Source of the DNA: Oscillospiraceae bacterium
Lineage (GTDB): Bacteria > Bacillota > Clostridia > Oscillospirales > Oscillospiraceae
Reading direction: 5' to 3'
Assembly (NCBI GenBank): GCA_902795195.1
Contig: CADBKF010000008.1
Span: 17,677-81,676 of the forward strand
Length of the DNA stretch: 64,000 bases
The notes beneath the pieces were generated by a model that worked only from the letters and a program-made list of their open reading frames with translations, searched no databases and was not told the origin of the DNA. This document shows, in pieces, positions 1,751-43,399 of this stretch. Within the stretch, counting starts at the first letter, position 1, and the number at the start of each line of letters is the position of its first letter. The translations under genes and the position numbers were made by a program.

Positions 1751-3565
1751 TCACAGCGGAAAGACCGTTCCCTCGGTGATGCCGGATTCGTTGAAGGCGT
1801 CCACGCGGACCCAGACCGGCTCGCCCTTGGTCAAGGCGCCGATCTTCTTCTCAAAGGCGCCGAGGACCATATAGCTGTGGTAGAGCTTGTCCGGCGCACA
1901 GCCCCAGAGGACGTTGTAGCCCACGGCGCCGGTGTCGGTCCAGGAAACCAGCATATCCAGATCGCCGAGGCGCTTTGCCTCTGCCCGGGGCGCTTCGGGC
2001 AGCGCGCCCTCACTCTTGCCGAAGACGCGCAGACCGGAGACACAGATCCGCTGCCGGAAGGGCAGCTCCGCCACGGTCAGCCTCAGATAGCGCACGCGAA
2101 CGCCGCCATCCGGCATCACAAAGTCGTTGCCAAGGTCCTGCGTGGCTTCGCGCTTGTCCGCGATGGGGAAATAGGTCTCGCCGTCCTCAGATCCCTCGAG
2201 CAGCCAGCGGCTCACGCGCTTCTCGGTGTCGATGTAGCGGATCTCGTGGGCGATGAGGCGGTCGACGCCCTCGGGGATCTGCGCGTCGATGCCCTCGTCC
2301 GCCAGGTTGATCTGAATCGCCCGGACGTCCTGCACAGAGCCGAGATCGACCCGGCACCATTCGTTTTCATTCCCGTCGGCGCGCCACCAGTCGCGCACGT
2401 TCTCATTGGTGACCTTCTCGGCGCCGCTGCCGGAGGAAACCGTGACCGGCTTATTATAAGACAGAAGCATGAATTCCGGCTTTGCGAAGGCGGGCGCCTC
2501 GACGTTGACCGGCCAGTCGCCGTAGCGCTGGTCGCACCAGAGCTCGCCGTCGGCGTCGAAGCCGGCCTTCCACAGGCCGAGCCGGCGCTCCATGTCGTTG
2601 TTCACGGAGATGGACATGCTGGCGGTGTGCCAGTAGTTCCCGTTCTTGTCCGCGATGGTGGAGCCGTGGCCGGCGCCGTTGATGAAGCCGCCGGGCTTGT
2701 AGGAGAAGGGATTGTTCTTCGCGAAATGGTAGGGGCCCAGCGGCTTGTCGGCCACGAGGACCGCGTCGCCGTAGACATTCAGCTGCGTGGCCGGGAAGGC
2801 GTACTGCAGATAGTATTTTCCATTGTGCTTGGTCACATAGGCGCCTTCGATATAGGGATCGTCCCCGGCAAAGCCTCTGGCCAGACGGCGCACGGCGGCC
2901 TCGTCGGTGAGCCCCTCTTTTTCCCTGAGCGCTGCGGGCATCTGCATCAGGCCCTGGAACATTTTTTCCGTCTCGGCCTCAATGTCGATTCCCGCCTTGG
3001 GGCTCACGTGGTCCATGCCGACGCGCTCATAGCCTCTGGTCTTGTTGTCCATCGTGAACATGACCTGCTGCTTACCGATGGGCTGCATGGTCTCAGGGTC
3101 GAGCTCCACACCCCAGATCGGGGTGATGTTGGAGCAGCCCCAGTAGAAATAGAAGCGGCCGTCGTCATCCACAAAGAGATCGGGGTCCCAGAAGGGGAAG
3201 GTTCCTTTGATTCTCTCCCACTGTCCGCCAAGGGGGTCCTTCGTGCGGTAGAAGTCGCAGGGCTCGCTGCGCTTGCTGGCGCAGAAATAGAGATACTCCC
3301 CTGCCGCGCGCACATCCGGCGCGTAGTCGAATACCGGGATCGGCGCTTCGAGCGGGTGGTATTCCCAGCTTACCATATCGTCCGAGACATAGAAGCCGCG
3401 GGTCATCGAGGGGAACAGATAGTGCCGGCCCTTGAACAGCACCAGCGTCGGGTCCGCCGCCTCGCGGTAGACCGACAGCTTTGCCTCTCCGAGGCCGGGC
3501 ATATTGGGCTGCTGGAAATTGTATTTATAAGGTAGGTTCAGCGGATTGCAGTAGTATTTGCTCAT
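1751..3565 (-). CDS. GH43-family glycoside hydrolase with C-terminal discoidin-like/beta-sandwich domains
   Basis: 604-aa ORF with AAGAGG upstream of ATG 3565. Propeller-type blocks typical of GH43 (ADPTLVLFKGRHYLF, DPDLFVDDDGRFYFYWG, YIEGAYVTKHNGKYYLQYA), then a WWRADGNENEWCRVDLG discoidin-like segment. Confidence 0.7.
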   Translation of the reverse strand: MSKYYCNPLNLPYKYNFQQPNMPGLGEAKLSVYREAADPTLVLFKGRHYLFPSMTRGFYVSDDMVSWEYHPLEAPIPVFDYAPDVRAAGEYLYFCASKRSEPCDFYRTKDPLGGQWERIKGTFPFWDPDLFVDDDGRFYFYWGCSNITPIWGVELDPETMQPIGKQQVMFTMDNKTRGYERVGMDHVSPKAGIDIEAETEKMFQGLMQMPAALREKEGLTDEAAVRRLARGFAGDDPYIEGAYVTKHNGKYYLQYAFPATQLNVYGDAVLVADKPLGPYHFAKNNPFSYKPGGFINGAGHGSTIADKNGNYWHTASMSISVNNDMERRLGLWKAGFDADGELWCDQRYGDWPVNVEAPAFAKPEFMLLSYNKPVTVSSGSGAEKVTNENVRDWWRADGNENEWCRVDLGSVQDVRAIQINLADEGIDAQIPEGVDRLIAHEIRYIDTEKRVSRWLLEGSEDGETYFPIADKREATQDLGNDFVMPDGGVRVRYLRLTVAELPFRQRICVSGLRVFGKSEGALPEAPRAEAKRLGDLDMLVSWTDTGAVGYNVLWGCAPDKLYHSYMVLGAFEKKIGALTKGEPVWVRVDAFNESGITEGTVFPL

Positions 3566-7845: not shown

Positions 7846-8769
7846 TCAGAACAGCGCGCTGCTCTTATCGAGCTTGGAGACAATCTTGTTGGCTCCCACG
7901 ATGAAGAGGAAGCCCACGACAGACTGCACAAAGCTGGCAGCCGAGGACATGCCCACATCGTTGTTTTTCAGCAGGGCGCGATAGACGTAGGTGTCGATGG
8001 TCTGGGTGACGCCGTAGAGCGAGCCCTGGTTCATGGGCACCTGATAGAACAGACCGAAGTCGGAGCGGAAGACCTGGCCGAGGCTCAGGATCAGCAGCAT
8101 GACCACGGTGGGGATCAGCAGCGGGATGGTGATGTTCTTGTGCTGCTGCCAGCGGGTGGCGCCGTCGAGGGTCGCGGCTTCATACAGGCTGGGGTCGATG
8201 CCCAGAATGGTGGACATGTACAGGATCATGCCGAAGCCCAGGTTGCGCCATTGGTTGACAAAGGTCAGGATAAAGGGCCACCACTTGCTCTCCTGATAGA
8301 ACGCCGGCGCGGTGCCGGTCAGACGCTCGAGCCATTTGGTGAACAGGCCGGCCGTCGGGGAGAGGTAGGCGTAGACCAGATAGGCGATGACGACCATGCT
8401 CATGAGGTAGGGCAGGAGGATGGCGGTCATATAGAATTTCTTTTTCAGCTTGCCGACGACCTCGTTGATGAGGATCGCGGCGGTGACGCCGACGATGGCG
8501 CTGAGGATGATCCAGGCAATGTTGTAGCACAGCGTGTTGCGGATCATGATCCAGGAGTCGGCTGTACGGAACAGGAACTTGAAGTTCTTGAAGCCGACCC
8601 AGGGGCTGTCCCACATGCCCTTGGTATAGCTGAAGTTTTTGAAGGCGATCTGCAGACCCGCAAGGGGCAGATAGTTGTTGATAAACAGGTAGATCAAGCC
8701 AGGCAGACCCATGAGGTAAAACGGGATCCACTGCTTGAAATTGCGTTTTTTCTTCTTGTCCTGCTTCAT
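7846..8769 (-). CDS. carbohydrate ABC transporter permease (LplB/YteP-like)
   Basis: 307 aa, YEAATLDGATRWQQHKNITIPLL EAA loop, multi-TM. Confidence 0.9.
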   Translation of the reverse strand: MKQDKKKKRNFKQWIPFYLMGLPGLIYLFINNYLPLAGLQIAFKNFSYTKGMWDSPWVGFKNFKFLFRTADSWIMIRNTLCYNIAWIILSAIVGVTAAILINEVVGKLKKKFYMTAILLPYLMSMVVIAYLVYAYLSPTAGLFTKWLERLTGTAPAFYQESKWWPFILTFVNQWRNLGFGMILYMSTILGIDPSLYEAATLDGATRWQQHKNITIPLLIPTVVMLLILSLGQVFRSDFGLFYQVPMNQGSLYGVTQTIDTYVYRALLKNNDVGMSSAASFVQSVVGFLFIVGANKIVSKLDKSSALF

Positions 8770-10583: not shown

Positions 10584-11393
10584 TTAGGGCGTTTCGTTGG
10601 GGCTGCCGCCCTGTTGGCGGTATTCCTGCGGCGTCATGCCGGTCTCCCTTTTGAACAGGCGGGCAAAATAGGAGTAGTTGTCGTAGCCGACGCTGTCGGC
10701 CACCCGGTTGATCGGATAGTCGGTGCGCACAAGCAGCTCCCTTGCCTGGCGCAGCCGTTCCCCTGTGATATACTCCAGAACAGACAGTCCGGTCGCCTTC
10801 TTGAACAGGCGGGCCAGATACTGCTCGTTCAGATAGACCTGCTCGGCCAGCTTGGACAGATAGATCTGCTCCTGCAGGTGCTTGTGGATATAGTCCTTCA
10901 CCGTGGCGACAGCGCTTTCGCCGGAGCGGCTTCGGTTCTCGTCGGCCAGCCGGCTGAGCACATGTGCAGGGACGCTGCTGTCTTCTTTGTCGGATGGCGG
11001 ATTGCCGTTCTGGTCCGCCCGCTTCCGAAGCCGCTGGGTCACGGTAACCAGAATCCGGTCCAGCTCCTCATAGTCGATGGGTTTCAGGATATAGTCCGCG
11101 CTGCCCAGCTGCATGGCCTTGCGCATATACTCATAGTCCGCGTGACAGGTGATAAACACGCACTCCACCGCGGGATAGTGGGACTTGACCCACGCGAACA
11201 GCTCCAATCCGCTCCCCTGCGGCATCTCGATGTCACAGAGCATCACCTGGATGTCTTTCGAGGAAAACAGCTCCTGTGCCTCGCGCATGGAGTATGCGAT
11301 AGATACCTCTTCTGCACCGTATGCCTTCCAGTCCACCCGCCGCTGCAGCGCCTTGACCGCCACGGCCTCATCGTCCACCAGAATCACATTCAT
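10584..11393 (-). CDS. response regulator, CheY receiver plus AraC-type HTH (YesN-like)
   Basis: MNVILVDDE...MLCDIEMP receiver, then a C-terminal AraC HTH (YSYFARLFKRETGMTPQEYR). ATGA overlap with the upstream kinase stop. Confidence 0.9.
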   Translation of the reverse strand: MNVILVDDEAVAVKALQRRVDWKAYGAEEVSIAYSMREAQELFSSKDIQVMLCDIEMPQGSGLELFAWVKSHYPAVECVFITCHADYEYMRKAMQLGSADYILKPIDYEELDRILVTVTQRLRKRADQNGNPPSDKEDSSVPAHVLSRLADENRSRSGESAVATVKDYIHKHLQEQIYLSKLAEQVYLNEQYLARLFKKATGLSVLEYITGERLRQARELLVRTDYPINRVADSVGYDNYSYFARLFKRETGMTPQEYRQQGGSPNETP

Positions 11394-13144
11394 GCGTTTC
11401 CGACTCCTTTCTTTTCCTGTGCCTGCGGGAGCTTGCCGATCTCGCCGATCTGACTGTGTACCGTGATCATCGGCAGCAGAATCTCAACCGCCGTTCCGCC
11501 GGTCGCCTGCCGGGACAGCGCCACGCTGCCGCTGCCGCCGTAGAGCAGCTCGACCCGGTCGATGGCGTTTTGGATGCCGATGCCCAGGCTCGGGCAGATG
11601 GTACGGGTCTTCCGGAATTCCTCGATGCTCTCCAGCACCTCGTCGGAGATGCCGACTCCGGTGTCGGTCACCCGCAGCAGTAGCTGCCCGTCTGCGTTCT
11701 TTTCGGCGCTCACCCGGATCTCCACAACCGACTCGGGCAGCAGCGCGTATTTGATCGAGTTTTCCGCAAAGCTCTGCAGCAGCAGCGGCGGGATCAGGCA
11801 GTCGGAAAGATCCTCGTCGTATTCCACAACCGCCTCGAAGGTCTTGACAAAGCGGACCTTCTGGATCTCGAAATAGTTGCGCAAATGCTCCATCTCGTGG
11901 CCGAGGGGGACAAAATCCTGATAGGCGTTGACCACATATCTGAAATATCTGGACAGATACAGGATCATCCTCTGGATCAGCGGGTATTCTTCCTGCTCGT
12001 AGCTGTAGAGGATGTTCAGCGTGTTGAGAATAAAGTGCGGCTTGATCTGCTGGGCCAGGAAGCCCATCCGGATCTTCTGCGCCTTGAGCTGCTCCTCATA
12101 CACGCTGATTTTCAGCTCCTCCACCTGATCCATCATGTGGTTGAAGCTGCGGTTGATCCGGTTGAACTCAGTGCCCTGCTCCTTTTCCGGGATCCGGTAG
12201 TCCAGATCGCCGCCCTCCACGATGCCGATGGCCTTGTGAAGCCGTGAGACCGGGCCGACCATCCAGTGCTGGATCGCCAGCACCAGGATCGGCAGGGCGA
12301 TCAGCGCCGCAACGGACAGGATCTGCAGCAGCCGGATCGCAAACGGCAGTGAGCCGCTGATCTGCCGGTCCGGCACAAGCTCCAGCAAATACAGCTCCCC
12401 GGAGAAGGCCCTGGCTGTGGAAATCAGGTAGCTCTGCTTTCCGAGCTTGAGCCGCTCCGTACCCGGCTCGAGCTGCTCCGGCAGCGACGCGGTGGCAAAC
12501 AGAATGCTGCCGTCCCGGTCGGTAAAGGTAAGGATACGCCCTTCCTCCCGCGGGATCTGCTGGGCGAGACCTGCAAGCTCGATCCAGGCGCCGTACCAGA
12601 CATTCCGGTGTTTGCTCATGCTGACCAGTACGGCCCGGTCGTCCAGAGAGATCAGCTGCGTCCGCCGCCTTGGATTTTCAGGGTCGACGTTGATTGCCTC
12701 CAGGATCTTGCTGCGCACCTGGGAGCTTCGGTAGAAATCGCTCTGTGCAAACTGGTCCTTCTCAGGGAAATAGGCATAGAGTCCGCCGATCAGAAACTCG
12801 TCTTCTTTTTTCCTTCTCAGGCTCGACTTCAGATCCACCACGGACTGCAGCTGACGGTAGCGCTCCTCTTCGTTGTTGATCTCTTTGTCCCGCAGACGCA
12901 GATAGTCCGGATCGTCGATGGACAGAAGGGCCAGATAGGTGTCGGCCCGTTTTAAGGCGTCGTCGGCCAGCTTCAGGTAGAGCTCCAGCGTGTGCCGGAT
13001 CTCCATGGTGGTCTGCGCCTCGGCGTCCGCGATGACCCTCTGGCCGAGGACCAGCGTCAGCAGGTTCAGAGGGATCAGCACTGCAAAAATCAGAAACACA
13101 ACGCGGTTGATCCAGGAAGAAAAAAATCGTTTGATGTACTTCAC
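11390..13144 (-). CDS. sensor histidine kinase, YesM-like (TM - HAMP - His_kinase - HATPase)
   Basis: KPHFILNTLNILY block and a C-terminal HATPase (VTDTGVGISDE, GIGIQNAIDRVELLYG). Real start taken as GTG 13144 (VKYIKRFFSSW) with AAGGGGG 5 nt upstream. The remaining 238 upstream codons of the 823-aa tracked ORF run through repeats and antisense to the esterase gene. Confidence 0.85.
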   Translation of the reverse strand: MKYIKRFFSSWINRVVFLIFAVLIPLNLLTLVLGQRVIADAEAQTTMEIRHTLELYLKLADDALKRADTYLALLSIDDPDYLRLRDKEINNEEERYRQLQSVVDLKSSLRRKKEDEFLIGGLYAYFPEKDQFAQSDFYRSSQVRSKILEAINVDPENPRRRTQLISLDDRAVLVSMSKHRNVWYGAWIELAGLAQQIPREEGRILTFTDRDGSILFATASLPEQLEPGTERLKLGKQSYLISTARAFSGELYLLELVPDRQISGSLPFAIRLLQILSVAALIALPILVLAIQHWMVGPVSRLHKAIGIVEGGDLDYRIPEKEQGTEFNRINRSFNHMMDQVEELKISVYEEQLKAQKIRMGFLAQQIKPHFILNTLNILYSYEQEEYPLIQRMILYLSRYFRYVVNAYQDFVPLGHEMEHLRNYFEIQKVRFVKTFEAVVEYDEDLSDCLIPPLLLQSFAENSIKYALLPESVVEIRVSAEKNADGQLLLRVTDTGVGISDEVLESIEEFRKTRTICPSLGIGIQNAIDRVELLYGGSGSVALSRQATGGTAVEILLPMITVHSQIGEIGKLPQAQEKKGVGNA

Positions 13145-13163
13145 ACGCAGACCCCCTTGTTGA

Positions 13164-13200
13164 GTGAATAGAGAATAGAGAATAGAGAATAGGGAATAGG
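13164..13200. repeat. heptanucleotide tandem array, five in-phase units (GTGAATA GAGAATA x3 GGGAATA; minus strand CCTATTC/TCTATTC)
   Basis: Read directly. Exact 7-nt period. Confidence 0.9.
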
Positions 13201-13206
13201 AAAGGT

Positions 13207-13233
13207 ATTTTCCAAATCGGCGATTTGGAAAAT
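13207..13233. other. 27-bp near-perfect palindrome ATTTTCCAAATCG-G-CGATTTGGAAAAT in the kinase leader
   Basis: Read directly: 13-bp arms with a 1-nt centre. A second small hairpin GTCCC-GAA-GGGAC lies at 13245..13257. Confidence 0.85.
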
Positions 13234-13259
13234 GGATTGAAATCGTCCCGAAGGGACAC

Positions 13260-13294
13260 CGACAACTGACAACTGACCACTGGCCACTGACCAC
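13260..13294. repeat. heptanucleotide tandem array, five in-phase units (CGACAAC TGACAAC TGACCAC TGGCCAC TGACCAC; minus strand AGTGGTC type)
   Basis: Read directly. Exact 7-nt period. Confidence 0.9.
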
Positions 13295-13298
13295 TTCC

Positions 13299-13327
13299 AT
13301 TATAAATCGGATCCCCGGATTTGTCAA
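13299..13327 (-). promoter_or_regulatory. consensus sigma-70-type promoter for the yesM/yesN-like operon
   Basis: Minus strand TTGACA (13327..13322), 17-nt spacer, TATAAT (13304..13299). Both hexamers match the consensus exactly. Confidence 0.6.
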
Positions 13328-13348
13328 TTTTCGAGGGGGAGGTCGCGC

Positions 13349-13377
13349 TTGCATTCTTTGATTTTTTCTGATACAAT
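13349..13377 (+). promoter_or_regulatory. candidate promoter of the second carboxylesterase gene
   Basis: TTGCAT (13349..13354), 17 nt, TACAAT (13372..13377), about 50 nt upstream of ATG 13427. Confidence 0.5.
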
Positions 13378-13426
13378 CAGGATACGAAATAAACCGCGAT
13401 CCGCGCTGAACAAGGAGGACTTCCGC

Positions 13427-14998
13427 ATGAAACACACATTCCGCTGCGATGCAGGCACCGCGCTCATCAAGACCGAACGCGGCCTTGTCAAGGGCTACGA
13501 GCACGACGGCCTGCTGATCTTCAAGGGCATCCCCTATGCCAAAGCCAGACGCTTCCACGCGCCCGAGCCGGTCAAGCCCTGGGAAGGGGTGTTCGACGCC
13601 AGCAACTACGGCTTCGTCTGCCCGCTGCTCACAAACGACCGGCCGAACGGCGAGCTGCATGTGCCGCACCGCTTCTGGCCGATGGACGAGGACTGCCTGA
13701 ACCTGAACATCTGGACCCCCGGCACGGACGAAAAAAAGCGCCCCGTGCTGTTCTGGCTGCACGGCGGCGGCTATGAGGCCGGCTCCTCGATCGAGCATCT
13801 GGCCTACGACGGCGCAAACCTGAGCCGTCTGGGGGACGTGGTGGTCGTCTCGATCAACCACCGGCTGAACATCCTCGGCTACTTTGACCTCTCAGACTAC
13901 GGCGAGGAATACGTGAACTCCGGCAACGCCGGCGGAGACGATATCATCGCCGCGCTGCGCTGGGTGCACGAGAACATCGCCCCGTTCGGCGGCGACCCGG
14001 AGAACGTGACCGTCTTCGGTCAGTCCGGCGGCGGCGCCAAGGTCACGACGCTGCTGCAGTCACCGGCGGCGGACGGGCTCTACGCGAAGGGGCTTGTGAT
14101 GAGCGGCGTGATCGGTCCCGTGCTGTCAGACGCAGTCGGCAGCGGCCGCGATCTGGCCGAGGCCCTGATGGCGGAGCTCGGACTGCACGCGGTCAAGGAG
14201 CTCGAAACCGTGGACTACCATCTGCTGGCCGCGGCCTACCGGAAGGTCAAGCCTGCGCTGGAGAAGGCAGGCGCGTATACGGGCTGCCGGCCGCATCCCA
14301 ACGCGTTCTATCTGGGCGAGCCGGTCGCAAACGGCTTCCGGCCGGAGACGAAGGACATCCCGCTGCTGGTGGGAAGCGTCTTCGGCGAGTTCTCCTCGTT
14401 CCTGCCCAGCCCCTACGACCGCTCCAACATGAGCGAGCAGGCGCAGAAGGACGCGATTGTGGAGATGCTGGGGCAGGAAGGCGCAGACGAGCTGATCCCG
14501 CTGTTCCGCGCCGCCTATCCGGAGCGGCAGCTGATCGACCTGCTGCGGCTCGACTTCATTTTCCGTGGGCCGGAGATCCCCTACATCGCCGCGCGCAGCC
14601 GCCTGAACGACTGCACCTGGTCCTACCTGTTCAACATGGACCAGCCCATCGACGGCGGCAACACCCCCTGGCACTGCAGCGACATCCCGTATTTCTTCCA
14701 CAACCTCGACCTCGTGGAGTACCCCCACGGGCCGCAGGCGGACCCCGATCTGTCCGAACGGGTCGAAGCGCTGTGCGCAGGAAGCCTTCTGCGCTTTGCC
14801 CGGACCGGCGACCCCGCCGGAACGGCGCTCCCGGACTGGAAGCCGTGCCGGGATGGCGAGGAGCTGACGTTGCTGATCGACGAGAACCCCCGCGTTCTGC
14901 CGAATTTCGACCACAGCCTGCTCGAAGCGCACAGCCGCGTCATGGGCCCGGTCATGGCCAGGATCATGCAGGCGCTGCACGAAAACATCCAGCATTGA
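13427..14998 (+). CDS. type-B carboxylesterase (second copy)
   Basis: GIPYAKARRFHAPEP, WLHGGGYEAGS, GQSGGG. Start trimmed to ATG 13427 with AAGGAGGA at 13412..13419. Confidence 0.85.
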   Translation: MKHTFRCDAGTALIKTERGLVKGYEHDGLLIFKGIPYAKARRFHAPEPVKPWEGVFDASNYGFVCPLLTNDRPNGELHVPHRFWPMDEDCLNLNIWTPGTDEKKRPVLFWLHGGGYEAGSSIEHLAYDGANLSRLGDVVVVSINHRLNILGYFDLSDYGEEYVNSGNAGGDDIIAALRWVHENIAPFGGDPENVTVFGQSGGGAKVTTLLQSPAADGLYAKGLVMSGVIGPVLSDAVGSGRDLAEALMAELGLHAVKELETVDYHLLAAAYRKVKPALEKAGAYTGCRPHPNAFYLGEPVANGFRPETKDIPLLVGSVFGEFSSFLPSPYDRSNMSEQAQKDAIVEMLGQEGADELIPLFRAAYPERQLIDLLRLDFIFRGPEIPYIAARSRLNDCTWSYLFNMDQPIDGGNTPWHCSDIPYFFHNLDLVEYPHGPQADPDLSERVEALCAGSLLRFARTGDPAGTALPDWKPCRDGEELTLLIDENPRVLPNFDHSLLEAHSRVMGPVMARIMQALHENIQH

Positions 14999-21315: not shown

Positions 21316-23634
21316 ATGAAACGTACGCTATCCATTTTCCTGTGTCTTGTGATGCTGCTGGGCATTCTGCCGCTGACGGCGTTTGCCGCTACGACCATCA
21401 CAGTCATCTCCCCGTACATTCCCGACAAGTATCTTCCCTACATCGGCAGGAATGCAAGCGCTGCCGTGAGCAGCAGCTATAATTCCAATTACATCAGCAT
21501 TTATGACTCGGAATGCTATGCTTCTGCTGCTGTATGGAAGGACAATGCATTCAACAACTTCACCGGCCAGTTCGAGGAAGACCCCGCCTACTGTCTGGTG
21601 CTGACGCTGAAGGCAAACTCCGGCTATGTCTTCGGTGACAAGTCCGTCACCTCCATGGACTATGACGACTGCAGAGGCTACGAATATGTGAAACGGAGCA
21701 ACACCGAGGCCGAGCTCCGCATCTGGTTTGACTCCATTCGGGTCTATACCAACCTTGCAAACTATTTCGGCTCGGAATATTCCGGCTTTATCCCGAAGGT
21801 GGAGGCCCCGTCGATCCCCACGACGGACATGACGAAGGACCAGTATCTGGCCCAGGTCAAGCTCAGCGCGGAGGACAGCAAGTATCTGACCCTGACGGAC
21901 CTCGATCTGGACGGCATTTTCAGCGACAGCAACAAGTTCCAGTCCGGAGAGACATATATGGTCTCCTTCAGCCTGGAGGTCAAGGAGGCAATGAAGACGC
22001 AGGCCAGGTTTGACCCGGAGCTGAGCGTCGTGGCCGTGGAATACGGCAATGTGTTCCAGGAGGTGGGCTACTACCCCTTTACCGATTCTGCCTACTTTGC
22101 CTTTAACCTCAACGACGTCGTTGATCGGGTCACGAAGGTGAGCATCAGCGGCCTTGAACGGCCGGTGGTCGGGTCGGCGCCGCAGACCACGGGCTTTACG
22201 ATCGACAACGACAATCTCGAGCTGCGCTTTGACAGCTGGCGGGAGCAGGGCGGCGGCAGCGTCTCCGTCTTCCAGGAGGGCAAGACCTATCTCCTGCGGC
22301 TGCTTCTGAGCGCGAAGGATGTGAACACCGAAATTGCGATCCCCGGTCCCAGCGGCGTCTGGACCAACGCCGGTTCTGTGATTGCGGCCGGCTTCCCCGA
22401 GGTCGGTAACTTCTATGTGGACATTCAGTTCAAGGTCGGCGCCGACATGGGCACGTACACCTTTGATCTCAGCGCCGGTCCGGCGGAATATGTACCGAAC
22501 AGCGATGTATCATATGGCTGGTTTATCGTGCTGCTCGGAGGCTACGTCGATTACAAAGACAGCAAGGTCGACCTGGACAAGGACGGCATTTACGACCTTG
22601 AGCTGTTTAAGGAAGACGATACCCAGTACCTCCGGGTCCTGGACGGCACCAAGCTCTCCGGCACATACGTGATCGACTTCTCGGACAACCAGGCGGTGCA
22701 AAACCTTCTGTCCAGCGGCGGGAATGTCTACACCTCCTTCACCTTTATCTTCCCCGGAGAACCGACGCCCGGCAAGGATCTGGGCAACTATGTCTTTGAT
22801 TTCAGCAAGGGCGATCTGCTGTTTGACGTTACGCAGCTCTGCTGGAGAGAATTGAGAGACCTGGTCAATGGCGGATTCATTCCCTACAGCTCAAGTAATA
22901 TCGACCTCGACGGTGACGGTCGCTTCGACCTCCAGCAGTACAAGTCCCATTCCAACTGGTATCTCAAGCCCCATCCCGACACCAACATCAAAGACAATTA
23001 CACCTTTATCCTGCTGCAGGCGGCCAAGGACCTGTACAAGGACGGCGAGCCCTACTATTCCTCGCTCACCTTCAAGTTCACCAGTGCGCCGATCAACCCC
23101 TTCGTGGACGTCAAGGAAGGCGCCTACTACTATGACGCGGTGCTCTGGGCGGTGAATCACGACCCGCAGATCACCAACGGCGTCGACCCCACCCACTTCG
23201 GCCCCGGCCAGAACTGCACCCGCGGCCAGGTCGTGACCTTCCTCTGGCGCGCGCTCGGCAGCCCGGAGCCCGTCAGCAGCTCCACGCCCTTCACCGACGT
23301 TTCGGCCACGGCCTACTACTACAAGGCCGTCCTCTGGGCCGTGGAGAAAGAGATCACCAACGGTCTCTCGACCACGAGCTTCGGCCCCGGCAGGAGCTGC
23401 ACACGCGGCCAGGTCGTGACCTTCCTCTGGCGCACTGCAGGCAAGCCGGCGGTCACCGGCAGCAACCCCTTCACCGATGTGAAGTCCACCGATTACTACT
23501 ATGAGGCCGTCCTCTGGGCCGTGAAAAACAACGTGACCAACGGCATGAGTGCCACCACGTTCGCCCCCGCTCAGACCTGCACCCGCGGCCAGATCGTCAC
23601 CTTCCTCTACCGCGCCTTCGGCCCCAAGGGCTGA
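21316..23634 (+). CDS. secreted cell-surface protein with three C-terminal SLH domains
   Basis: Signal peptide MKRTLSIFLCLVMLLGILPLTAFA, GGAGGA RBS, and 3 x SLH (FVDVKEGAYYYDAVLWAV...TRGQVVTFLWRA). The N-terminal ~590 aa have no family I recognise. Confidence 0.85.
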   Translation: MKRTLSIFLCLVMLLGILPLTAFAATTITVISPYIPDKYLPYIGRNASAAVSSSYNSNYISIYDSECYASAAVWKDNAFNNFTGQFEEDPAYCLVLTLKANSGYVFGDKSVTSMDYDDCRGYEYVKRSNTEAELRIWFDSIRVYTNLANYFGSEYSGFIPKVEAPSIPTTDMTKDQYLAQVKLSAEDSKYLTLTDLDLDGIFSDSNKFQSGETYMVSFSLEVKEAMKTQARFDPELSVVAVEYGNVFQEVGYYPFTDSAYFAFNLNDVVDRVTKVSISGLERPVVGSAPQTTGFTIDNDNLELRFDSWREQGGGSVSVFQEGKTYLLRLLLSAKDVNTEIAIPGPSGVWTNAGSVIAAGFPEVGNFYVDIQFKVGADMGTYTFDLSAGPAEYVPNSDVSYGWFIVLLGGYVDYKDSKVDLDKDGIYDLELFKEDDTQYLRVLDGTKLSGTYVIDFSDNQAVQNLLSSGGNVYTSFTFIFPGEPTPGKDLGNYVFDFSKGDLLFDVTQLCWRELRDLVNGGFIPYSSSNIDLDGDGRFDLQQYKSHSNWYLKPHPDTNIKDNYTFILLQAAKDLYKDGEPYYSSLTFKFTSAPINPFVDVKEGAYYYDAVLWAVNHDPQITNGVDPTHFGPGQNCTRGQVVTFLWRALGSPEPVSSSTPFTDVSATAYYYKAVLWAVEKEITNGLSTTSFGPGRSCTRGQVVTFLWRTAGKPAVTGSNPFTDVKSTDYYYEAVLWAVKNNVTNGMSATTFAPAQTCTRGQIVTFLYRAFGPKG

Positions 23635-27937: not shown

Positions 27938-27983
27938 CCCCCAAAAAACAAAAGGCAGGAGCCCCAGCTCCTGCCTTTCGTTC
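27398..27983 (+). repeat. direct repeat copy B (3xSLH coding region plus terminator)
   Basis: See copy A. Confidence 0.85.
27950..27978. terminator. bidirectional terminator between the SLH gene and the DUF2812 gene
   Basis: AAAAGGCAGGAGC-CCCA-GCTCCTGCCTTTC, with an A-run on one side and a T-run on the other. Confidence 0.7.
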
Positions 27984-27988
27984 TATTC

Positions 27989-28483
27989 CTATTCCCGCAA
28001 GGCGCGTTCGTTTTCCAGATAGTCGATCTTTCCCTTGAAGACGCCGCAGCCGTACATCAAAAGGGCGCAGCACAGCAGGTTCACCCAGCCGAAGTGGCTC
28101 GCATTGAAGGAGTTCATCAAGCCGATGCCCAGATTGAGGATGCCGACCAGCCCGACCATCCGGCGGATATTTTTCAAGTGATTGATCCGGGAGTCCAGAT
28201 CCGAAAACAGGTCGAACTGGCCCAGCTCGCTCCGCTTGCGGAAGTAGATCCATTTCACGACTCTGCCCAGATATTCCGCGCCGGTCTCCCGCATAAAGGC
28301 CAGATAGCCCTCGTCCTGATCGTGCATCTCCAGCCGGATCGTGTAGGCGCCCGGCTCGGTCTTTTCAAAATGATAGGTGCAGAAGCCGACGCCGACCAGG
28401 GCCCAGCCCTGCATCGCCATCTCGTTGAGCCAGCGCTCCTCTTTTTCAAAGTCCCAGACCCAGAACCATTTGCGTACCGTCAT
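27989..28483 (-). CDS. DUF2812-family membrane protein (PadR partner)
   Basis: MTVRKWFWVWDFEKEERWLNEMAMQGWALVGV is the typical DUF2812 N-terminus, with C-terminal TM helices. ATG 28483 forms an ATGA overlap with the padR stop. Alternative start at 28495. Confidence 0.75.
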   Translation of the reverse strand: MTVRKWFWVWDFEKEERWLNEMAMQGWALVGVGFCTYHFEKTEPGAYTIRLEMHDQDEGYLAFMRETGAEYLGRVVKWIYFRKRSELGQFDLFSDLDSRINHLKNIRRMVGLVGILNLGIGLMNSFNASHFGWVNLLCCALLMYGCGVFKGKIDYLENERALRE

Positions 28484-28812
28484 TCTGTCAGCCATTTTTG
28501 CGGCCCTCCCAAAACCGTTTCTCCGTTTTTTACCAGCTCTCTGAGCCGGTTCAGCTCCCCGGTGAGCACCTGCAGGCCCTTGTCGGTGAGCTGATAGTTC
28601 TTCTTTCTGCTGCCGTCCGTCACCGGCAGCTGGACGATCCAGTGCTTTTCCACCATGGCATTCAATGCCCCGTACAGCGTGCCTGCCGCCAGCCGGACCC
28701 GGCCGCCGGACATGGCCTCCACCGCCTGCATGATCCCGTAGCCGTGCTGCGGGTTGTACAGCGACAGGAGGATGTAGTACGTCGCCTCGGTCAGCACGAT
28801 ATTTTCCTGCAT
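28480..28812 (-). CDS. PadR-family transcriptional regulator
   Basis: YYILLSLYNPQHGYGIMQAV...GTLYGALNAMVEKHWI winged-helix signature, 110 aa. Confidence 0.85.
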   Translation of the reverse strand: MQENIVLTEATYYILLSLYNPQHGYGIMQAVEAMSGGRVRLAAGTLYGALNAMVEKHWIVQLPVTDGSRKKNYQLTDKGLQVLTGELNRLRELVKNGETVLGGPQKWLTE

Positions 28813-35024: not shown

Positions 35025-35040
35025 ACGCCCCTCCTTATAA

Positions 35041-35075
35041 AACTAACCACTAACCACTAACAACTACCCACTATT
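35041..35075. repeat. heptanucleotide tandem array, five in-phase units (AACTAAC CACTAAC CACTAAC AACTACC CACTATT; minus strand AGTGGTT type)
   Basis: Read directly. Fills the whole space between the -10 box and the RBS of the AraC gene. Confidence 0.9.
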
Positions 35076-35100
35076 ATAACAACTTTTGCAAACTATGCAA
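35073..35100 (-). promoter_or_regulatory. near-consensus promoter of the AraC gene 34149..35024
   Basis: Minus strand TTGCAT (35100..35095), 16 nt, TATAAT (35078..35073). Confidence 0.55.
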
Positions 35101-35164
35101 CAATCAAAGCAATTCTTTTTCTGACTTTTTTACGGTATGCTCAAAGAAAAAACGGAGGGTTCCT

Positions 35165-37785: not shown

Positions 37786-39084
37786 ATGAAATATTACCTT
37801 GCAATCGACATCGGCGCATCCTCGGGCCGGCACATCGTGGGCTGGACGGAGGATGGCGCGCTCAAAACCGAAGAGCTCTACCGCTTCCCCAACGGGGTGC
37901 AGTCGCAGGACGGGCACCTGATCTGGGACATCGAGGCGCTGCTTTCCCACGTGAAGGCCGGCATCGACGCGGCGCTCGAACAATTCCCGCAGATCGAGAG
38001 CCTGTCCATCGACACCTGGGGCTGCGACTACGTGCTGCTGCGCGGCGACGAGGCCGTCCTGCCCTGCTATGCCTACCGCGACGGGCGCACCGAGGAAGTG
38101 ATCCCGGCGGTGCACCGGAAGATGCCGTTTTTCGAGCTCTACGCGCACACCGGCTGCCAGTTCCAGCCCTTCAACACGGTCTACCAGCTCTGCGCCGATC
38201 TGGCGACGGGCCGGCTCGAGGGCGCGACGGACTTCCTGATGGTGCCGGAGTATCTCATGTACCGGCTCACCGGCGTGAAGTCCAAGGAGTACACCAACGC
38301 CACCACGACCGGGCTCGTCAACGCCCGCACCTACGAGTATGACCGCGAGATCATCTCCCGCCTGGGTCTGCCGGCGCAGCTCTTCCCCGCGCTGCAGCAG
38401 CCGGGCACCGAGATCGGCAGCTACAAGGGCATCCGCGTGCTGCTCTGCCCCACCCACGACACCGCCTCGGCGGTCGAGGGCATTGATTTTGCAGCAGACA
38501 AGCCCATGCAAGGCGCGTCCCTGCAGGCTGTTCCCTACATCTCCTCCGGCACCTGGTCGCTGCTGGGTCTGCGCACGCCGGTGGCGCTCACCGATGAGCG
38601 CAGCCAGGCCGGCAACTGGTCCAATGAGGGCGGCGTTGGCTACAACCGCTACCAGAAGAACATCATGGGCATGTGGCTGGTCAACCGCCTGCGCGACGAG
38701 CTCTGTCCGGGCAAGCCCTTCCCCGAGATCGTGGCGCTGGCCAAGCAAAGCCGCTTCGACGGCCTGGTCAATGCCGACGGCGAGAGCTTCCTGGCGCCCG
38801 AGCGCATGAAGGACGCCTTCGACGAGGCGCTGGAGCAGCAGCCCGAGACCATGGGCGACTATTTCCGCTGCGCCTACCGCAGCCTGGCGCTCAGCTACAA
38901 GAACGCGCTCGACGAGCTTGAGCGCAACACCGGCAGAAAATTCGACCGTCTTGTCATCGTCGGCGGCGGCGCGAAAAACCAGTTTTTGAACGACCTCACC
39001 GCGCATTTCACCGCAAAGCAAGTCATCGCCCTGCCCGTCGAGGCCACGGCCTTGGGCAATCTGAAAATTCAAATGAACGCATAA
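37786..39084 (+). CDS. rhaB: rhamnulokinase (FGGY family)
   Basis: YLAIDIGASSGRHIVG, SIDTWGCDYVLL, YAYRDGRT, FQPFNTVYQL parallel the E. coli RhaB blocks as I remember them. Confidence 0.8.
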   Translation: MKYYLAIDIGASSGRHIVGWTEDGALKTEELYRFPNGVQSQDGHLIWDIEALLSHVKAGIDAALEQFPQIESLSIDTWGCDYVLLRGDEAVLPCYAYRDGRTEEVIPAVHRKMPFFELYAHTGCQFQPFNTVYQLCADLATGRLEGATDFLMVPEYLMYRLTGVKSKEYTNATTTGLVNARTYEYDREIISRLGLPAQLFPALQQPGTEIGSYKGIRVLLCPTHDTASAVEGIDFAADKPMQGASLQAVPYISSGTWSLLGLRTPVALTDERSQAGNWSNEGGVGYNRYQKNIMGMWLVNRLRDELCPGKPFPEIVALAKQSRFDGLVNADGESFLAPERMKDAFDEALEQQPETMGDYFRCAYRSLALSYKNALDELERNTGRKFDRLVIVGGGAKNQFLNDLTAHFTAKQVIALPVEATALGNLKIQMNA

Positions 39085-39088
39085 TTCT

Positions 39089-39166
39089 GTAGGGGGCGGC
39101 GTCCTCGACGCCCCGAATATTCCAGTCTTCTGACAATCGCGGGGCGTCGAGGACGCCGCCCCCTAC
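39089..39166. repeat. nested-palindrome (REP-like) element, copy 1
   Basis: 27-nt arms GTAGGGGGCGGCGTCCTCGACGCCCCG (39089..39115) and the exact reverse complement (39140..39166), with a 24-nt spacer. Each arm contains its own hairpin GGCGTC-CTC-GACGCC. Confidence 0.9.
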
Positions 39167-39186
39167 ACAATCAACGGAGGGAAAAC

Positions 39187-40618: not shown

Positions 40619-40698
40619 CGTAGGGGGCGGCGTCCTCGACGCCCCGAACCTTTCCACATACAAAGACCTGCGGGGCGTCGAGGACGCCGCCCCCTACG
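40619..40698. repeat. nested-palindrome (REP-like) element, copy 2
   Basis: Same 27-nt arms as copy 1, extended by one bp (40619..40646 and 40671..40698), again with a 24-nt spacer of different sequence. Confidence 0.9.
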
Positions 40699-41579: not shown

Positions 41580-41646
41580 CCGCCCGGATTGCGAGGCTTG
41601 ACAGGCGGGCCGAAACATGGTACGATCCGCACAGGAGACGGATGCT

Positions 41647-42966
41647 ATGAAACACAAACTCGATCTTCGACAATGGAATATTCCCTACATCGGCCAGCGG
41701 ATCATGAAGACGACCGTGGCGGTGTTTTTGTGTCTGCTGGCCTATCTGCTGCTGGGCTACCGCGGCAGCACGATCCCCACCGAGGCTGCCATCACCGCGA
41801 TCATCTGCATGCAGCCCTTCGTCAGCCGCACCAAGCAGTATGCCATCACCCGCACGATCGGCACGCTGATCGGCTCGTTCTGGGGGCTTCTGACGCTGGT
41901 GCTGCTCTATTCGGTGCCGGCCATCGGCCAGTGGCTGCCGCTGCCGCATCTGTGCATGGCCATCGGTGTGATGCTCTCGCTCTACAGCGCGAATCTGCTG
42001 CACCGGACCGAGGCTGCCAGCCAGGCCGCCATCGTCTTTTTGTGCATCGTCATCGCCTTTCCGGAGGTGGACGCGCCGCTGCAGCGGGCCGGCCTGCGCA
42101 TCGCGGACGTCTTTCTCGGCACGCTGATCGCGATCGCGGTCAACACCTTCCGCCTGCCGCGCAGAAAGCAGCCGGACACGGTTTACTTTGTGCGCACGCG
42201 GGACCTTGTGCCCGACCGCTTCTCGCAGATTACGCCCACGGTGCTCTTCCGGCTCAACCGGTTGTATGAGGACGGGGCAAAGATCTGCCTGGTCAGCGAG
42301 CACGCGCCCGCCTTCTTCACCCAGCAGATGAACGCGGTCAAGATGAACGTGCCGCTGATCGTCATGGACGGCGCCGCGATTTTTGACGAAAACAAGAACT
42401 GCTTTTTGAAGGAGAACACCATCGCCAAGGCCGACTCCGCCCGGGTGCGCAACCAGCTCGACACCCTGGGGCTGAGCTACTTTATCTACACCATCCACCG
42501 TGACAAGACCTGCATTTTCCACCGCGGACGCTACCGCCCGGAGGAAAATCTGCTCATCGACCGCATGAAGCGCTCGCCCTACCGCAACTATCTCGAGGGC
42601 GAGATCTACGAGGCGGCGGAGATCGTCTATTTCAAGATCATCGCGCAGACCGCCGAGGTGCAGGAGCTTGAGGAGGACGTGCGCAGCGTGCTGCCGACGC
42701 AGAAATACCGCATCGTGACCAAACCCCAGGCCGGCGCCGAGGGGCTGAGCGGCATCTATATCTACGCCGAAGGCTCGAACCCCGAGACGGCAAAGGCCGA
42801 GCTCATGAAGCTGCTGCGCCAGCAGGACCCCCAGCTCAAGCCGCTGAACATGACGCTCAAAACCGGCTACCGCACCGAGCACGACGCCATCCGCCTGCTG
42901 CACAGCATCGAAAGCCACTTTGAGCCGGTCATCTTCCGTAAACGCAGGAGTGCAGCGAGGAGTTAG
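41647..42966 (+). CDS. FUSC/ArAE-like membrane domain fused to a Cof/HAD-like domain lacking the DxD nucleophile motif
   Basis: Start trimmed to ATG 41647. N-terminal ~170 aa with 4-5 TM (RIMKTTVAVFLCLLAYLL...). The C-terminal ~270 aa is HAD-IIB-like, but the position of motif I reads FVRTRDLV. Confidence 0.6.
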   Translation: MKHKLDLRQWNIPYIGQRIMKTTVAVFLCLLAYLLLGYRGSTIPTEAAITAIICMQPFVSRTKQYAITRTIGTLIGSFWGLLTLVLLYSVPAIGQWLPLPHLCMAIGVMLSLYSANLLHRTEAASQAAIVFLCIVIAFPEVDAPLQRAGLRIADVFLGTLIAIAVNTFRLPRRKQPDTVYFVRTRDLVPDRFSQITPTVLFRLNRLYEDGAKICLVSEHAPAFFTQQMNAVKMNVPLIVMDGAAIFDENKNCFLKENTIAKADSARVRNQLDTLGLSYFIYTIHRDKTCIFHRGRYRPEENLLIDRMKRSPYRNYLEGEIYEAAEIVYFKIIAQTAEVQELEEDVRSVLPTQKYRIVTKPQAGAEGLSGIYIYAEGSNPETAKAELMKLLRQQDPQLKPLNMTLKTGYRTEHDAIRLLHSIESHFEPVIFRKRRSAARS

Positions 42967-43065
42967 GGGTCAGGGGTCAGGGGCCAGGAGTCAGTGGACA
43001 GTTGAAAGTGGAAAGTGGAAAGATGTTCCATTCCCTCCTCGTTCCTCACTGACCACTAACCACTC
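42963..43065. repeat. array of ~15 in-phase heptanucleotides whose motif drifts (TCAGGGG -> TCAGTGG -> AAAGTGG -> TTCCATT -> CACTGAC/CACTAAC)
   Basis: Read directly. The phase is kept across the whole 103 nt. The left and right thirds are roughly reverse-complementary. Confidence 0.85.
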
Positions 43066-43130
43066 AAAAAAAAGGGCAAAGCACCAACGCGCCTGCCGGA
43101 GGCAGCTGCGTTGATGCTTTGCCCTTTTTA
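43066..43130. terminator. long bidirectional terminator hairpin
   Basis: A8-GGGCAAAGCA...TGCTTTGCCC-T5, with an inner helix CAACGC-CTGCC-GGA-GGCAG-TGCGTTG. Confidence 0.75.
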
Positions 43131-43189
43131 TATTCGGAACGCCGCCCTGAAAATCGTCGTCCGGAGAAATGTCGTCCGGAAAAACGCCG

Positions 43190-43399
43190 TCAGTGGACGG
43201 GCTGGGGCATGTGCTCGTGGAGTCTTTGGAGGCCGATTTCGTACTGCGCCTGCGAGATCGCGTTCCGGACCCGGAGGGTCTCGAGCATCTCCAGTTCACG
43301 CTGATACATCGCGCGCAGCTTCTGCTGGCGGGTCATCCGCTCCCACTCGCGCTGCTGCGCGCTGGGCTGACGCAAATCGGTTGCAACGTCGATTGCCAT
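43190..43399 (-). CDS. small (69 aa) helical protein with SHOCT-like C-terminal motif; function unknown
   Basis: ATG 43399 with GAGGGGG 7 nt upstream. MAIDVATDLRQPSAQQREWERMTRQQKLRAMYQRELEMLETLRVRNAISQAQYEIGLQRL... Confidence 0.55.
   Translation of the reverse strand: MAIDVATDLRQPSAQQREWERMTRQQKLRAMYQRELEMLETLRVRNAISQAQYEIGLQRLHEHMPQPVH

Follow-up and report, generated by a model that had tools for sequence, protein, structure and literature searches.

Decayed copy of a heptad-armed repeat element as the probable origin of the long leader of a yesM/yesN-like operon in an Oscillospiraceae bacterium

A stretch of 64,000 nucleotides from contig CADBKF010000008.1 of an Oscillospiraceae bacterium (hereafter the window; positions are counted from its first letter) carries on its minus strand a yesM/yesN-like operon, whose leader of about 150 nt contains two arrays of 7-nt units (heptads) with two hairpins between them. 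We consider, with a probability of about 0.6, that this leader is a decayed copy of a structured element resembling a miniature inverted-repeat transposable element (MITE), which sits in the 5′ untranslated region (5′ UTR) and has heptad arms that evolve by slippage. The sequences show directly the anatomy of the repeat, a second copy of the element, an insertion polymorphism of that second copy, a change of copy number in the arms and the absence of the element from more distant orthologues. The features of the leader are as follows.

13299..13327, minus strand: sigma-70-type promoter, TTGACA (13327..13322), spacer of 17 nt, TATAAT (13304..13299), 12 of 12 consensus positions
13261..13295, minus strand: 5′ G-rich heptad arm, AGTGGTC AGTGGCC AGTGGTC AGTTGTC AGTTGTC, in phase
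13245..13257, minus strand: core hairpin 1, GTCCC-TTC-GGGAC, inside the conserved 19-mer GGTGTCCCTTCGGGACGAT, present in the minimum free energy (MFE) and centroid folds
13207..13233, minus strand: core hairpin 2, a perfect 27-nt palindrome, ATTTTCCAAATCG-C-CGATTTGGAAAAT
13166..13200, minus strand: 3′ C/U-rich heptad arm, CCTATTC twice and then TCTATTC three times
13142..13158, minus strand: ribosome-binding site (RBS) AAGGGGG (13158..13152) and GTG start (13144..13142) of the YesM-like histidine kinase gene 11390..13144

All the leader features named in a preliminary description of this sequence were found in place; the loop of the first hairpin was given there as GAA, which is its plus-strand reading, and the minus strand has TTC. 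The promoter scan of 12900-13600 returned TTGACA-17-TATAAT as the sole promoter-like match, and GGA separates its TATAAT from the first G-rich heptad. The C/U-rich array contains no G and ends about 7 nt 5′ of the Shine-Dalgarno (SD) sequence. With a conserved sigma-70-type promoter on one side of the two arrays and the RBS on the other, their earlier assignment to a 5′ UTR is retained as a prediction. The core of the element is GGTGTCCCTTCGGGACGAT .. ATTTTCCAAATCNCCGATTTGGAAAAT. No second copy of the palindrome was found in the window, even with 3 mismatches, and Rfam covariance models gave nothing at gathering score in the window and nothing at E <= 1 in 13100-13450.

The second copy of the element was found on contig L458, which belongs to the same organism but comes from another sample, carries an exact copy of the MurF-like protein of the window and reaches about 10 kb beyond the window end. 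The gap between secA and mraZ on this contig has the same layout at 3123-3250, with five heptads, a two-hairpin core and five heptads, and about 153 nt of the leader (window 13318..13166) align with L458 3101..3250. The order in this copy is five G-rich heptads, the 19-mer, the palindrome, ACCTT and five C-rich heptads. The 19-mer is identical, and the palindrome, which is found in L458 and in the relative L123 described below, differs in one loop base; the 3′ arm consists of five CACTGAC-type units where the leader has YCTATTC. The arms of the L458 copy are complementary, and its RNA would fold as a stem of about 30 bp that encloses both hairpins, with folding energies of -58.6 and -64.5 kcal/mol for the two strands (z = -8.8 and -8.4). 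The homology between the leader and L458 begins about 27 nt 5′ of the G-rich arm, where 16 of 22 aligned bases match, and this onset places the spacer and the -10 box of the leader inside the repeated segment and the -35 box outside it.

The secA-mraZ copy is polymorphic among strains. Contigs with 99%-identical MraZ fall into two classes of secA-mraZ spacer, which measures 492-493 nt with the element (L458, L461) and 274 nt without it (L459, L460, L462), the flanks being otherwise nearly identical. The presence/absence polymorphism amounts to 218 bp, and reading of the junctions gave an insert of 210 nt (L458 3078-3287) that ends in 15-nt terminal inverted repeats (TIRs), GTATCTGTTCAGTCG and CGAATGAACAGTTAC, with 87% complementarity, and is bounded by an 8-bp direct target duplication, TATAATTC and TACAATTC. 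The insert has the hallmarks of a MITE-like insertion. The duplicated sequence TATAATTC suggests, from this single event, that a preference for -10-like targets is one cause of the nearness of arrays to -10 boxes described below. The element was also sought in annotated plasmids and phages, and its core in viral contigs, with no match. The earlier proposal of a portable promoter cassette survives in part: heptads, hairpin and palindrome form a dispersed repeat whose other copy is strain-polymorphic, but this repeat does not include the -35 box, and no consensus promoter is present in the second copy. Since the arrays are arms of a definable element with a structured core and a recent, strain-polymorphic insertion, a single lineage of gut Clostridium offers a way to study the origin and turnover of such repeats.

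The comparison of relatives was made on the kinase gene and its operon. The kinase product has 584 aa, with the same call on ENA contigs, and contains the Pfam domains His_kinase, HAMP and HATPase_c; downstream are genes for an AraC-type response regulator, a DUF3502 binding protein and two permeases, and the divergent neighbour is a carboxylesterase gene with its start at 13427. From this domain content the operon is assigned to a YesM/YesN-like, sugar-sensing two-component system, in agreement with the name it had been given. Contigs with an identical kinase have an identical leader, and TTGACA-17-TATAAT is unchanged in L121, L122 and L123. The closest relative, L123 (kinase identity 89%), has kept promoter and palindrome, but its 5′ arm consists of AGAGGTC AGTGTCC only, which is about one heptad against five in the window, and its 3′ arm has five units in another mix (CCTATTC four times and TCTATTC once). 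In the orthologues L124 and L125, with kinase identities of 70% and 57% and the same downstream operon, the promoters read TTGACA-17-TATAAA (L124) or TTGCAT-17-TATGAT, and the leaders of about 25-40 nt contain no heptads and no palindrome. As the yesM-like promoter is kept in relatives, it is probably genuine and old.

By this comparison the approximately 125 extra nucleotides of the leader are an addition specific to this lineage, with arms that vary in copy number, and the leader is not a conserved regulator of the yesMN-like operon. The suggestion of a dedicated regulator of this operon is therefore not upheld, given two orthologues without heptads and the closest relative with about one 5′ heptad. 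The comparison of copy number that had been proposed gave a difference between relatives, as stated for L123, and no strain-level variation of arrays 1 (the leader) and 2 (described below) among the contigs compared. For annotation, such leaders should be masked as repeat elements and not described as operon-specific riboregulators.

We propose the following course of events. A small, non-coding repeat element, now old and partly decayed, would have come to lie between the -35 box and the RBS of the yesMN-like operon and would itself supply the spacer and the -10 box. In its intact form the element would consist of five G-rich heptads, a two-hairpin core and five complementary C-rich heptads, so that a stem of about 30 bp encloses the core. 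The arms would change through slipped-strand expansion, contraction and homogenisation, which would account for one unit against five in the closest relative and for the differing unit mix and sequence of the 3′ arms. With a -10 box supplied by the element, transcription would be expected to start in the first heptad and the entire element would become 5′ UTR. The folded leader RNA contains two small hairpins only, and its stability is that of shuffled sequence (z = +0.3); on this ground the leader as a structured RNA was ruled out. Since the leader arms no longer pair, the arrays are predicted to be single-stranded around the two small hairpins. A modest effect on expression may be expected from a leader of about 150 nt in place of about 25 nt and from a G-free C/U tract just 5′ of the SD. 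The mobility of the leader copy itself is deduced from the other copy. An element that lands right after -10 boxes would become the 5′ end of the mRNA, and this may be a general route by which leaders are rewritten.

Several points weigh against this explanation. In the part of the genome that was covered, the element was seen in two copies only. Around the leader copy no recognisable TIRs or target duplication were found, and matches there to the TIRs of the L458 copy are not above chance. The leader copy is also present in a sibling lineage without the secA-mraZ insertion, and it is this presence together with the lack of termini that leads us to read the leader as the older, decayed copy. 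The -35 box and its flank (TTGACAAAT) are common to the element-free L124, and for this reason the left end of the element and the source of the -10 box are only provisionally assigned. The YCTATTC unit is not simply derivable from the unit of the other copy; a route to it from CCACT-type units through C-to-T changes, with G-U pairing maintained, was considered and dropped, because the register could not be fixed and a 5-bp pairing of random heptads is not improbable. The transcription start site and the 5′ UTR status are predictions. The strand bias across phyla and the recurrence of a -10 box beside the G-rich arm, both given below, suggest a selection that a mere decayed insertion leaves unexplained.

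An unlikely alternative is that the leader is an expression rheostat processed by RNase III, in which arm length sets a hairpin and copy number tunes kinase and regulator. The model for it is the 5′ UTR of hmw1A/hmw2A in Haemophilus influenzae, where a transcribed, pyrimidine-rich (ATCTTTC)n arm and a G-rich one form a hairpin that is cut by RNase III, copy number is inversely related to expression and a change of copy number needs transcription (PMC12721329). The likeness is that a heptad array stands as a simple sequence repeat (SSR) between promoter and start codon in both, hmw being the one example of such a layout that experiments have dissected. The two arms of the present leader can form a duplex of three 5-bp helices with G-U pairs (-8.8 kcal/mol), a fold with paired arms comes within 2 kcal/mol of the MFE, and an intact copy would be a double-stranded RNA stem of about 30 bp. 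The predicted pairing in the leader is weak, however, and the whole leader is no more structured than its shuffles. Independent strain-level contigs share identical arrays, and the closest relative is without the 5′ arm, so that pairing appears dispensable. The regulated gene is an adhesin in Haemophilus and a sugar-sensing two-component system here, which is not a typical contingency locus.

The placing of heptads after a -10 box is not confined to this leader. Within the window a -10 box stands beside the G-rich arm at two loci, and one such case is found in a Ruminococcus metagenome-assembled genome (L147), where TGgTATAAT is followed by 7 nt, (AGTGGTT)4 and an RBS; with further cases in metagenomes, the recurrence of the -10-then-AGTGGTY arrangement that had been described is borne out. 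In phages and in most phyla this neighbourhood is rare: among the matches listed, a -10-like box was near 12 of 204 viral arrays and 7 of 246 genomic ones. That phages generally combine promoter and array was rejected, as TATAAT-N2-8-(AGTGGNN)2AGTGG had 0 matches in all viral contigs (reverse orientation 1, scrambled hexamer 0). The metagenomes were scanned with 0-30 nt allowed from TATAAT to the array, with leftward extension of the array by our own heuristic and without a scrambled-hexamer control; the gaps peaked at 0-5 nt, and of the 121 cases 54 had a gap of -1 to 5 nt, whereas past 10 nt each bin held about 2.5. The extended -10 motif TGn was present in 13 of 68 near cases and 2 of 53 far cases of the same scan. 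Some metagenome contigs have an identical upstream part (terminator, TGgTATAAT) and differ in (AGTGGCT)n, with at least 8 copies in L409 and 4 in L422; a pair of the same kind is L334/L380 with 8 copies and L368 with 3. These pairs are copy-number polymorphisms at promoter-abutting arrays.

The heptads are also over-represented within the window. The pattern AGTNGNN x2 + AGTNG with at most 1 mismatch gave 11 matches against 0.14 expected, and the CTATTC array 4 matches against 0 expected. Tandem Repeats Finder (TRF) detected both leader arrays with period 7 and 4.9 and 5.6 copies, and in a scan of periods 4-12 over the window period 7 alone yielded arrays. All five period-7 arrays of the window are intergenic, though about 86% of the window is coding. 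The AG at heptad positions 1-2 is invariant over the G-rich arrays of the window. Apart from the leader, the following loci were found.

35038..35078, minus strand: array 2, TGtTATAAT directly abutting AGTGGGT AGTTGTT AGTGGTT AGTGGTT AGTTTTA, then RBS, ATG (35024) and an AraC-family gene
42958..43065, plus strand: array 3, inverted heptad pair; the G-rich arm (AGGGGTC.., AGTGGAA..) begins at the stop codon of gene 41617..42966 and the C-rich arm (..CACTGACCACTAACCACT) comes after
43069..43129, plus strand: terminator-like long hairpin with A and T runs at its flanks, directly 3′ of the array 3 hairpin
27983..27994, plus strand: minimal remnant CTATTC CTATTC (CTATTCCTATTC), two copies of period 6, overlapping the stop of a DUF2812 gene (27989..28495, minus strand), with a terminator hairpin adjoining

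For 35025..35101 a promoter followed by heptads had been described. TATAAT does abut AGTGGTY-type heptads before the AraC-type gene, but the promoter scan shows no -35 box; the RNA of array 2 is predicted to be unstructured. The related array reported at 42963..43065 is real and folds as a long imperfect hairpin, but it is an inverted pair after a stop codon and before a terminator and not a promoter leader. The one reported at 27981..27996 is still unexpected by chance, with just two copies at period 6. The same gap as array 3 holds, 3′ of the terminator hairpin, a 15-nt tandem repeat at 43138-43191 (AACGCCGTCCGGAAA, 3.6 copies).

The extension of L458 past the window has four further heptad loci, and the density over the organism was seven array loci in about 82 kb. 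The gap from secA to CAT (L458 136-282, both genes on the minus strand) is nearly all heptads, with a short G-rich arm after the secA stop and then about 16 C-rich units up to the next RBS. Just past the window end, between a penicillin-binding protein (PBP) gene and murE, a 42-nt unit (caccgcaccccgtagcggccgggttgcccggccaaaaac) is repeated in tandem about ten times at L458 8080-8430, directly after an 11-copy AGTGGTT/AGCGGCT array and hairpins resembling repetitive extragenic palindromic (REP) sequences. Within the window, two G+C-rich inverted-repeat copies (CGTAGGGGGCGGCGTCCTCGACGCCCCG .. 24 nt .. complement) occupy successive intergenic gaps at 39084-39171 and 40619-40698, and similar GTAGGGGC hairpins lie 3′ of heptad arrays in L458 (~7990-8070) and in the metagenome matches L314, L318, L368 and L380.

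The arrays belong to a wider class. The pattern AGTNGNN x4 had at least 120 matches in viral contigs of 21-71% G+C, many of them inverted pairs or abutting start codons; AGTTATC and AGTGGTC occur in the same arrays of viral contigs, and CTATTCN x4 was found in 54 viral stretches. A 10-kb phage contig (L027, IMGVR_UViG_3300047586_000106) carries about 20 AGTGGTC/GACCACT arrays; nearly all of its gaps read stop, (CAGTGGN)n, loop, (NCCACTG)n, start, and in some of them the C-rich array reaches the start codon with no visible SD. A stricter pattern searched in species-representative genomes gave, among the matches listed, mostly Acidobacteriota, Planctomycetota, Cyanobacteria, Chloroflexota and Bacteroidota; only four of the matches listed are Firmicutes, which makes this Clostridium lineage unusual for its phylum. 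For the 246 genomic arrays among the matches listed, and by a crude heuristic for open reading frames (ORFs), the stop of a long ORF was within 30 nt before the G-rich strand in 100 cases and before the C-rich strand in 28, and the start of a long ORF came after the C-rich strand in 63 cases and after the G-rich strand in 40. The arms are mutually complementary in other copies and other genomes. An inverted pair reads with its G-rich arm first on both strands, so that this order belongs to the element itself and does not reflect the direction of genes. The literature search found no paper on such arrays in Clostridia and none on heptad arrays as arms of a conserved-core element.

These data also bear on an improbable second alternative, in which the leader holds two independent heptanucleotide microsatellites that slip in place within an unconstrained leader, with no element and no function. 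The copy number does differ between relatives (L123), the metagenome strain pairs given above share flanks and differ in copy number (L409/L422; L334, L380/L368), and heptanucleotides reportedly make up the largest class of long SSRs, for which polymerase slippage is blamed (Mrazek 2007, as reported in PMC4679880). Independent slippage, however, would not be expected to give five units, an identical core and five units again at a second locus, and it agrees poorly with the strong strand bias relative to genes and with the complementary arms in other copies and genomes.

Nothing equivalent was said earlier to have been described; this does not hold, as the class is known. Bacterial genomes are known to be over-rich in heptanucleotide repeats (Mrazek 2007, as cited in PMC4679880 and PMC4692102), and the short tandemly repeated repetitive (STRR) heptanucleotides of cyanobacteria are an early example (Mazel 1990, as cited in PMC4692102 and PMC4679880). 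Although bacterial repeats of this kind have a record going back to 1990 and no other long simple repeat is as common in many genomes, the class is still unexplained. The STRR and other long heptanucleotide SSRs resemble the present arrays in their tandem 7-nt units, intergenic position, many loci per genome and variable copy number, and the genome scan for the AGTGGTC-type unit matched many heterocystous cyanobacteria. The STRR units are CCCCAGT, TTGGTCA and CAACAGT, whereas the units here are AGTGGTC, AGTTGTC and YCTATTC in an Oscillospiraceae-type Clostridium (the nearest homologues are named Oscillospiraceae), where the arrays form the paired arms around a conserved core. The preliminary description is thus confirmed as an observation, and its interpretation was right in a leader that is probably transcribed and in a portable module, and wrong in the novelty of the repeat class and in dedicated regulation.

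The TAACTGA direct repeats of Beggiatoaceae, Cyanobacteria and Bacteroidetes lie next to start codons (PMC4679880). The complement of AGTTGTC in tandem is CAACTGA, one base off, and that of AGTTATC is exactly TAACTGA; the position beside start codons is shared. In Beggiatoa it is the strand with ACT that is sense, directly at the start codon and in place of the SD (PMC4679880), whereas the leader has its G-rich strand as sense at the 5′ end, the SD is clear and CAACTGA and CCACTGA are on the antisense strand. The GGGNATC and GGGGAYT heptamers of Xanthomonas and Nostoc are G-rich on the coding strand after stops and on the non-coding strand before starts (Rehm et al., PMC4692102); the 246 genomic arrays among the matches listed follow the same orientation rule. 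These heptamers are likewise mostly transcribed and have no link to surface genes, and no link to mobile elements was reported for them (PMC4692102). The G-quadruplex proposed there needs four G-tracts, and was rejected here because at least four consecutive tracts of at least 3 G are required, the AGTGGTC-type units of the leader have GG only and array 3 has three GGGG tracts.

The arrays may alternatively be a landing pad for a protein that binds single strands, such as cold-shock-domain proteins, ribosomal protein S1 or a multimer of the HutP/TRAP type, by which translation or mRNA stability would be controlled; we regard this as quite improbable. The footprint of a cold-shock domain is about 7 nt, the arrays are predicted to be unstructured, the G-free C/U-rich array stops about 7 nt before the SD and the first two heptad positions are invariant in the G-rich arrays of the window. 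C-rich arrays stand right before start codons in many genomes and phages, as do the TAACTGA repeats, for which S1, Csp and CsrA were proposed as binders (PMC4679880). The units, however, vary widely (AGTGGTC, AGTTGTC, YCTATTC, CACTGAC), which argues against one sequence-specific binder, the arrays are not kept in orthologous leaders and the window yielded no candidate gene for such a protein. A DNA operator, with YesN or another factor bound to the palindrome and perhaps the heptads at the divergent esterase and kinase promoters, is very improbable: the perfect 27-nt palindrome is kept in the 89% relative and the region lies between divergent genes, but palindrome and hairpin recur at the unrelated secA-mraZ locus in a strain-polymorphic insertion, the orthologous yesM promoters are without both, and a 7-bp period does not hold sites on one face of the DNA helix.

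The decayed-element explanation has counterparts among bacterial MITEs found in 5′ UTRs, such as the Correia elements of Neisseria and BOX/RUP of pneumococci. These are short and non-coding, with inverted termini and target duplications, lie between promoters and genes, are co-transcribed and form long hairpins; Correia elements are substrates of RNase III and can contribute promoter boxes. Compared by description only, they differ from the present element in having no tandem heptad arms. The intervening sequences (IVS) of 23S rRNA with a PF05635 ORF have in common with the element an inverted-arm stem around a cargo; the cargo here is two small hairpins, and the location is an mRNA leader and not rRNA.

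Genes of this PF05635 family were found between heptad arrays elsewhere. In the Ruminococcus genome L147 the arrays flank a 119-aa ORF that matches PF05635 (23S rRNA intervening sequence protein, an Avd-like four-helix bundle) with E = 1e-42. The gene was present in 9 of about 420 array-selected loci, and 8 of these 9 have heptad arrays within about 100 nt at the flanks. A PF05635 gene beside most arrays was therefore rejected; the association holds in the direction from protein to array. Among 32 viral loci picked by the PF05635 protein alone (near-duplicates included, about 24 distinct), a period-7 array was within 200 nt upstream in 22 of 32 and downstream in 12 of 32, and the downstream array is usually the reverse complement of the upstream one; other repeat periods were found at 0-3 of the same loci. 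The loci with the gene among inverted arrays are given below.

L147 3180-3700; L144, L303, L323, L343, L355, L374, L246; L424-L455: PF05635 gene with G-rich arm upstream and C-rich arm downstream

Crystal structures of the PF05635 family are pentameric, and one of them, 2GSC, comes from the heptamer-rich Xanthomonas campestris. A jackhmmer search found no PF05635-type ORF in the window, and the literature search found no report of PF05635 genes embedded between heptad arrays. At L303 / L425 350-1000 the intervening sequence protein (IVP) gene and the heptad arms are apparently inside one long ORF, with coding-like sequence on both sides, which could be an intervening element within a protein-coding gene. 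It is a tentative and rather doubtful idea that inverted heptad arrays are the stems of IVS-like or MITE-like modules across phyla, with the Avd-like PF05635 protein as a frequent cargo, and that this protein or the machinery moving or processing the modules creates, binds or maintains the arrays, including the cyanobacterial STRR; the leader would then be an ORF-less member that landed at a -10 box. The layout of arm, cargo and arm recurs over phyla and phages, and the Avd-like family is a testable candidate partner.

One more repeat of the window lies apart from these loci. A 180-nt tandem repeat (2.4 copies, 75% identity) was found at 23170-23608 within a 772-aa ORF (21316..23634), which adjoins the gene for a 1419-aa SLH-domain protein.

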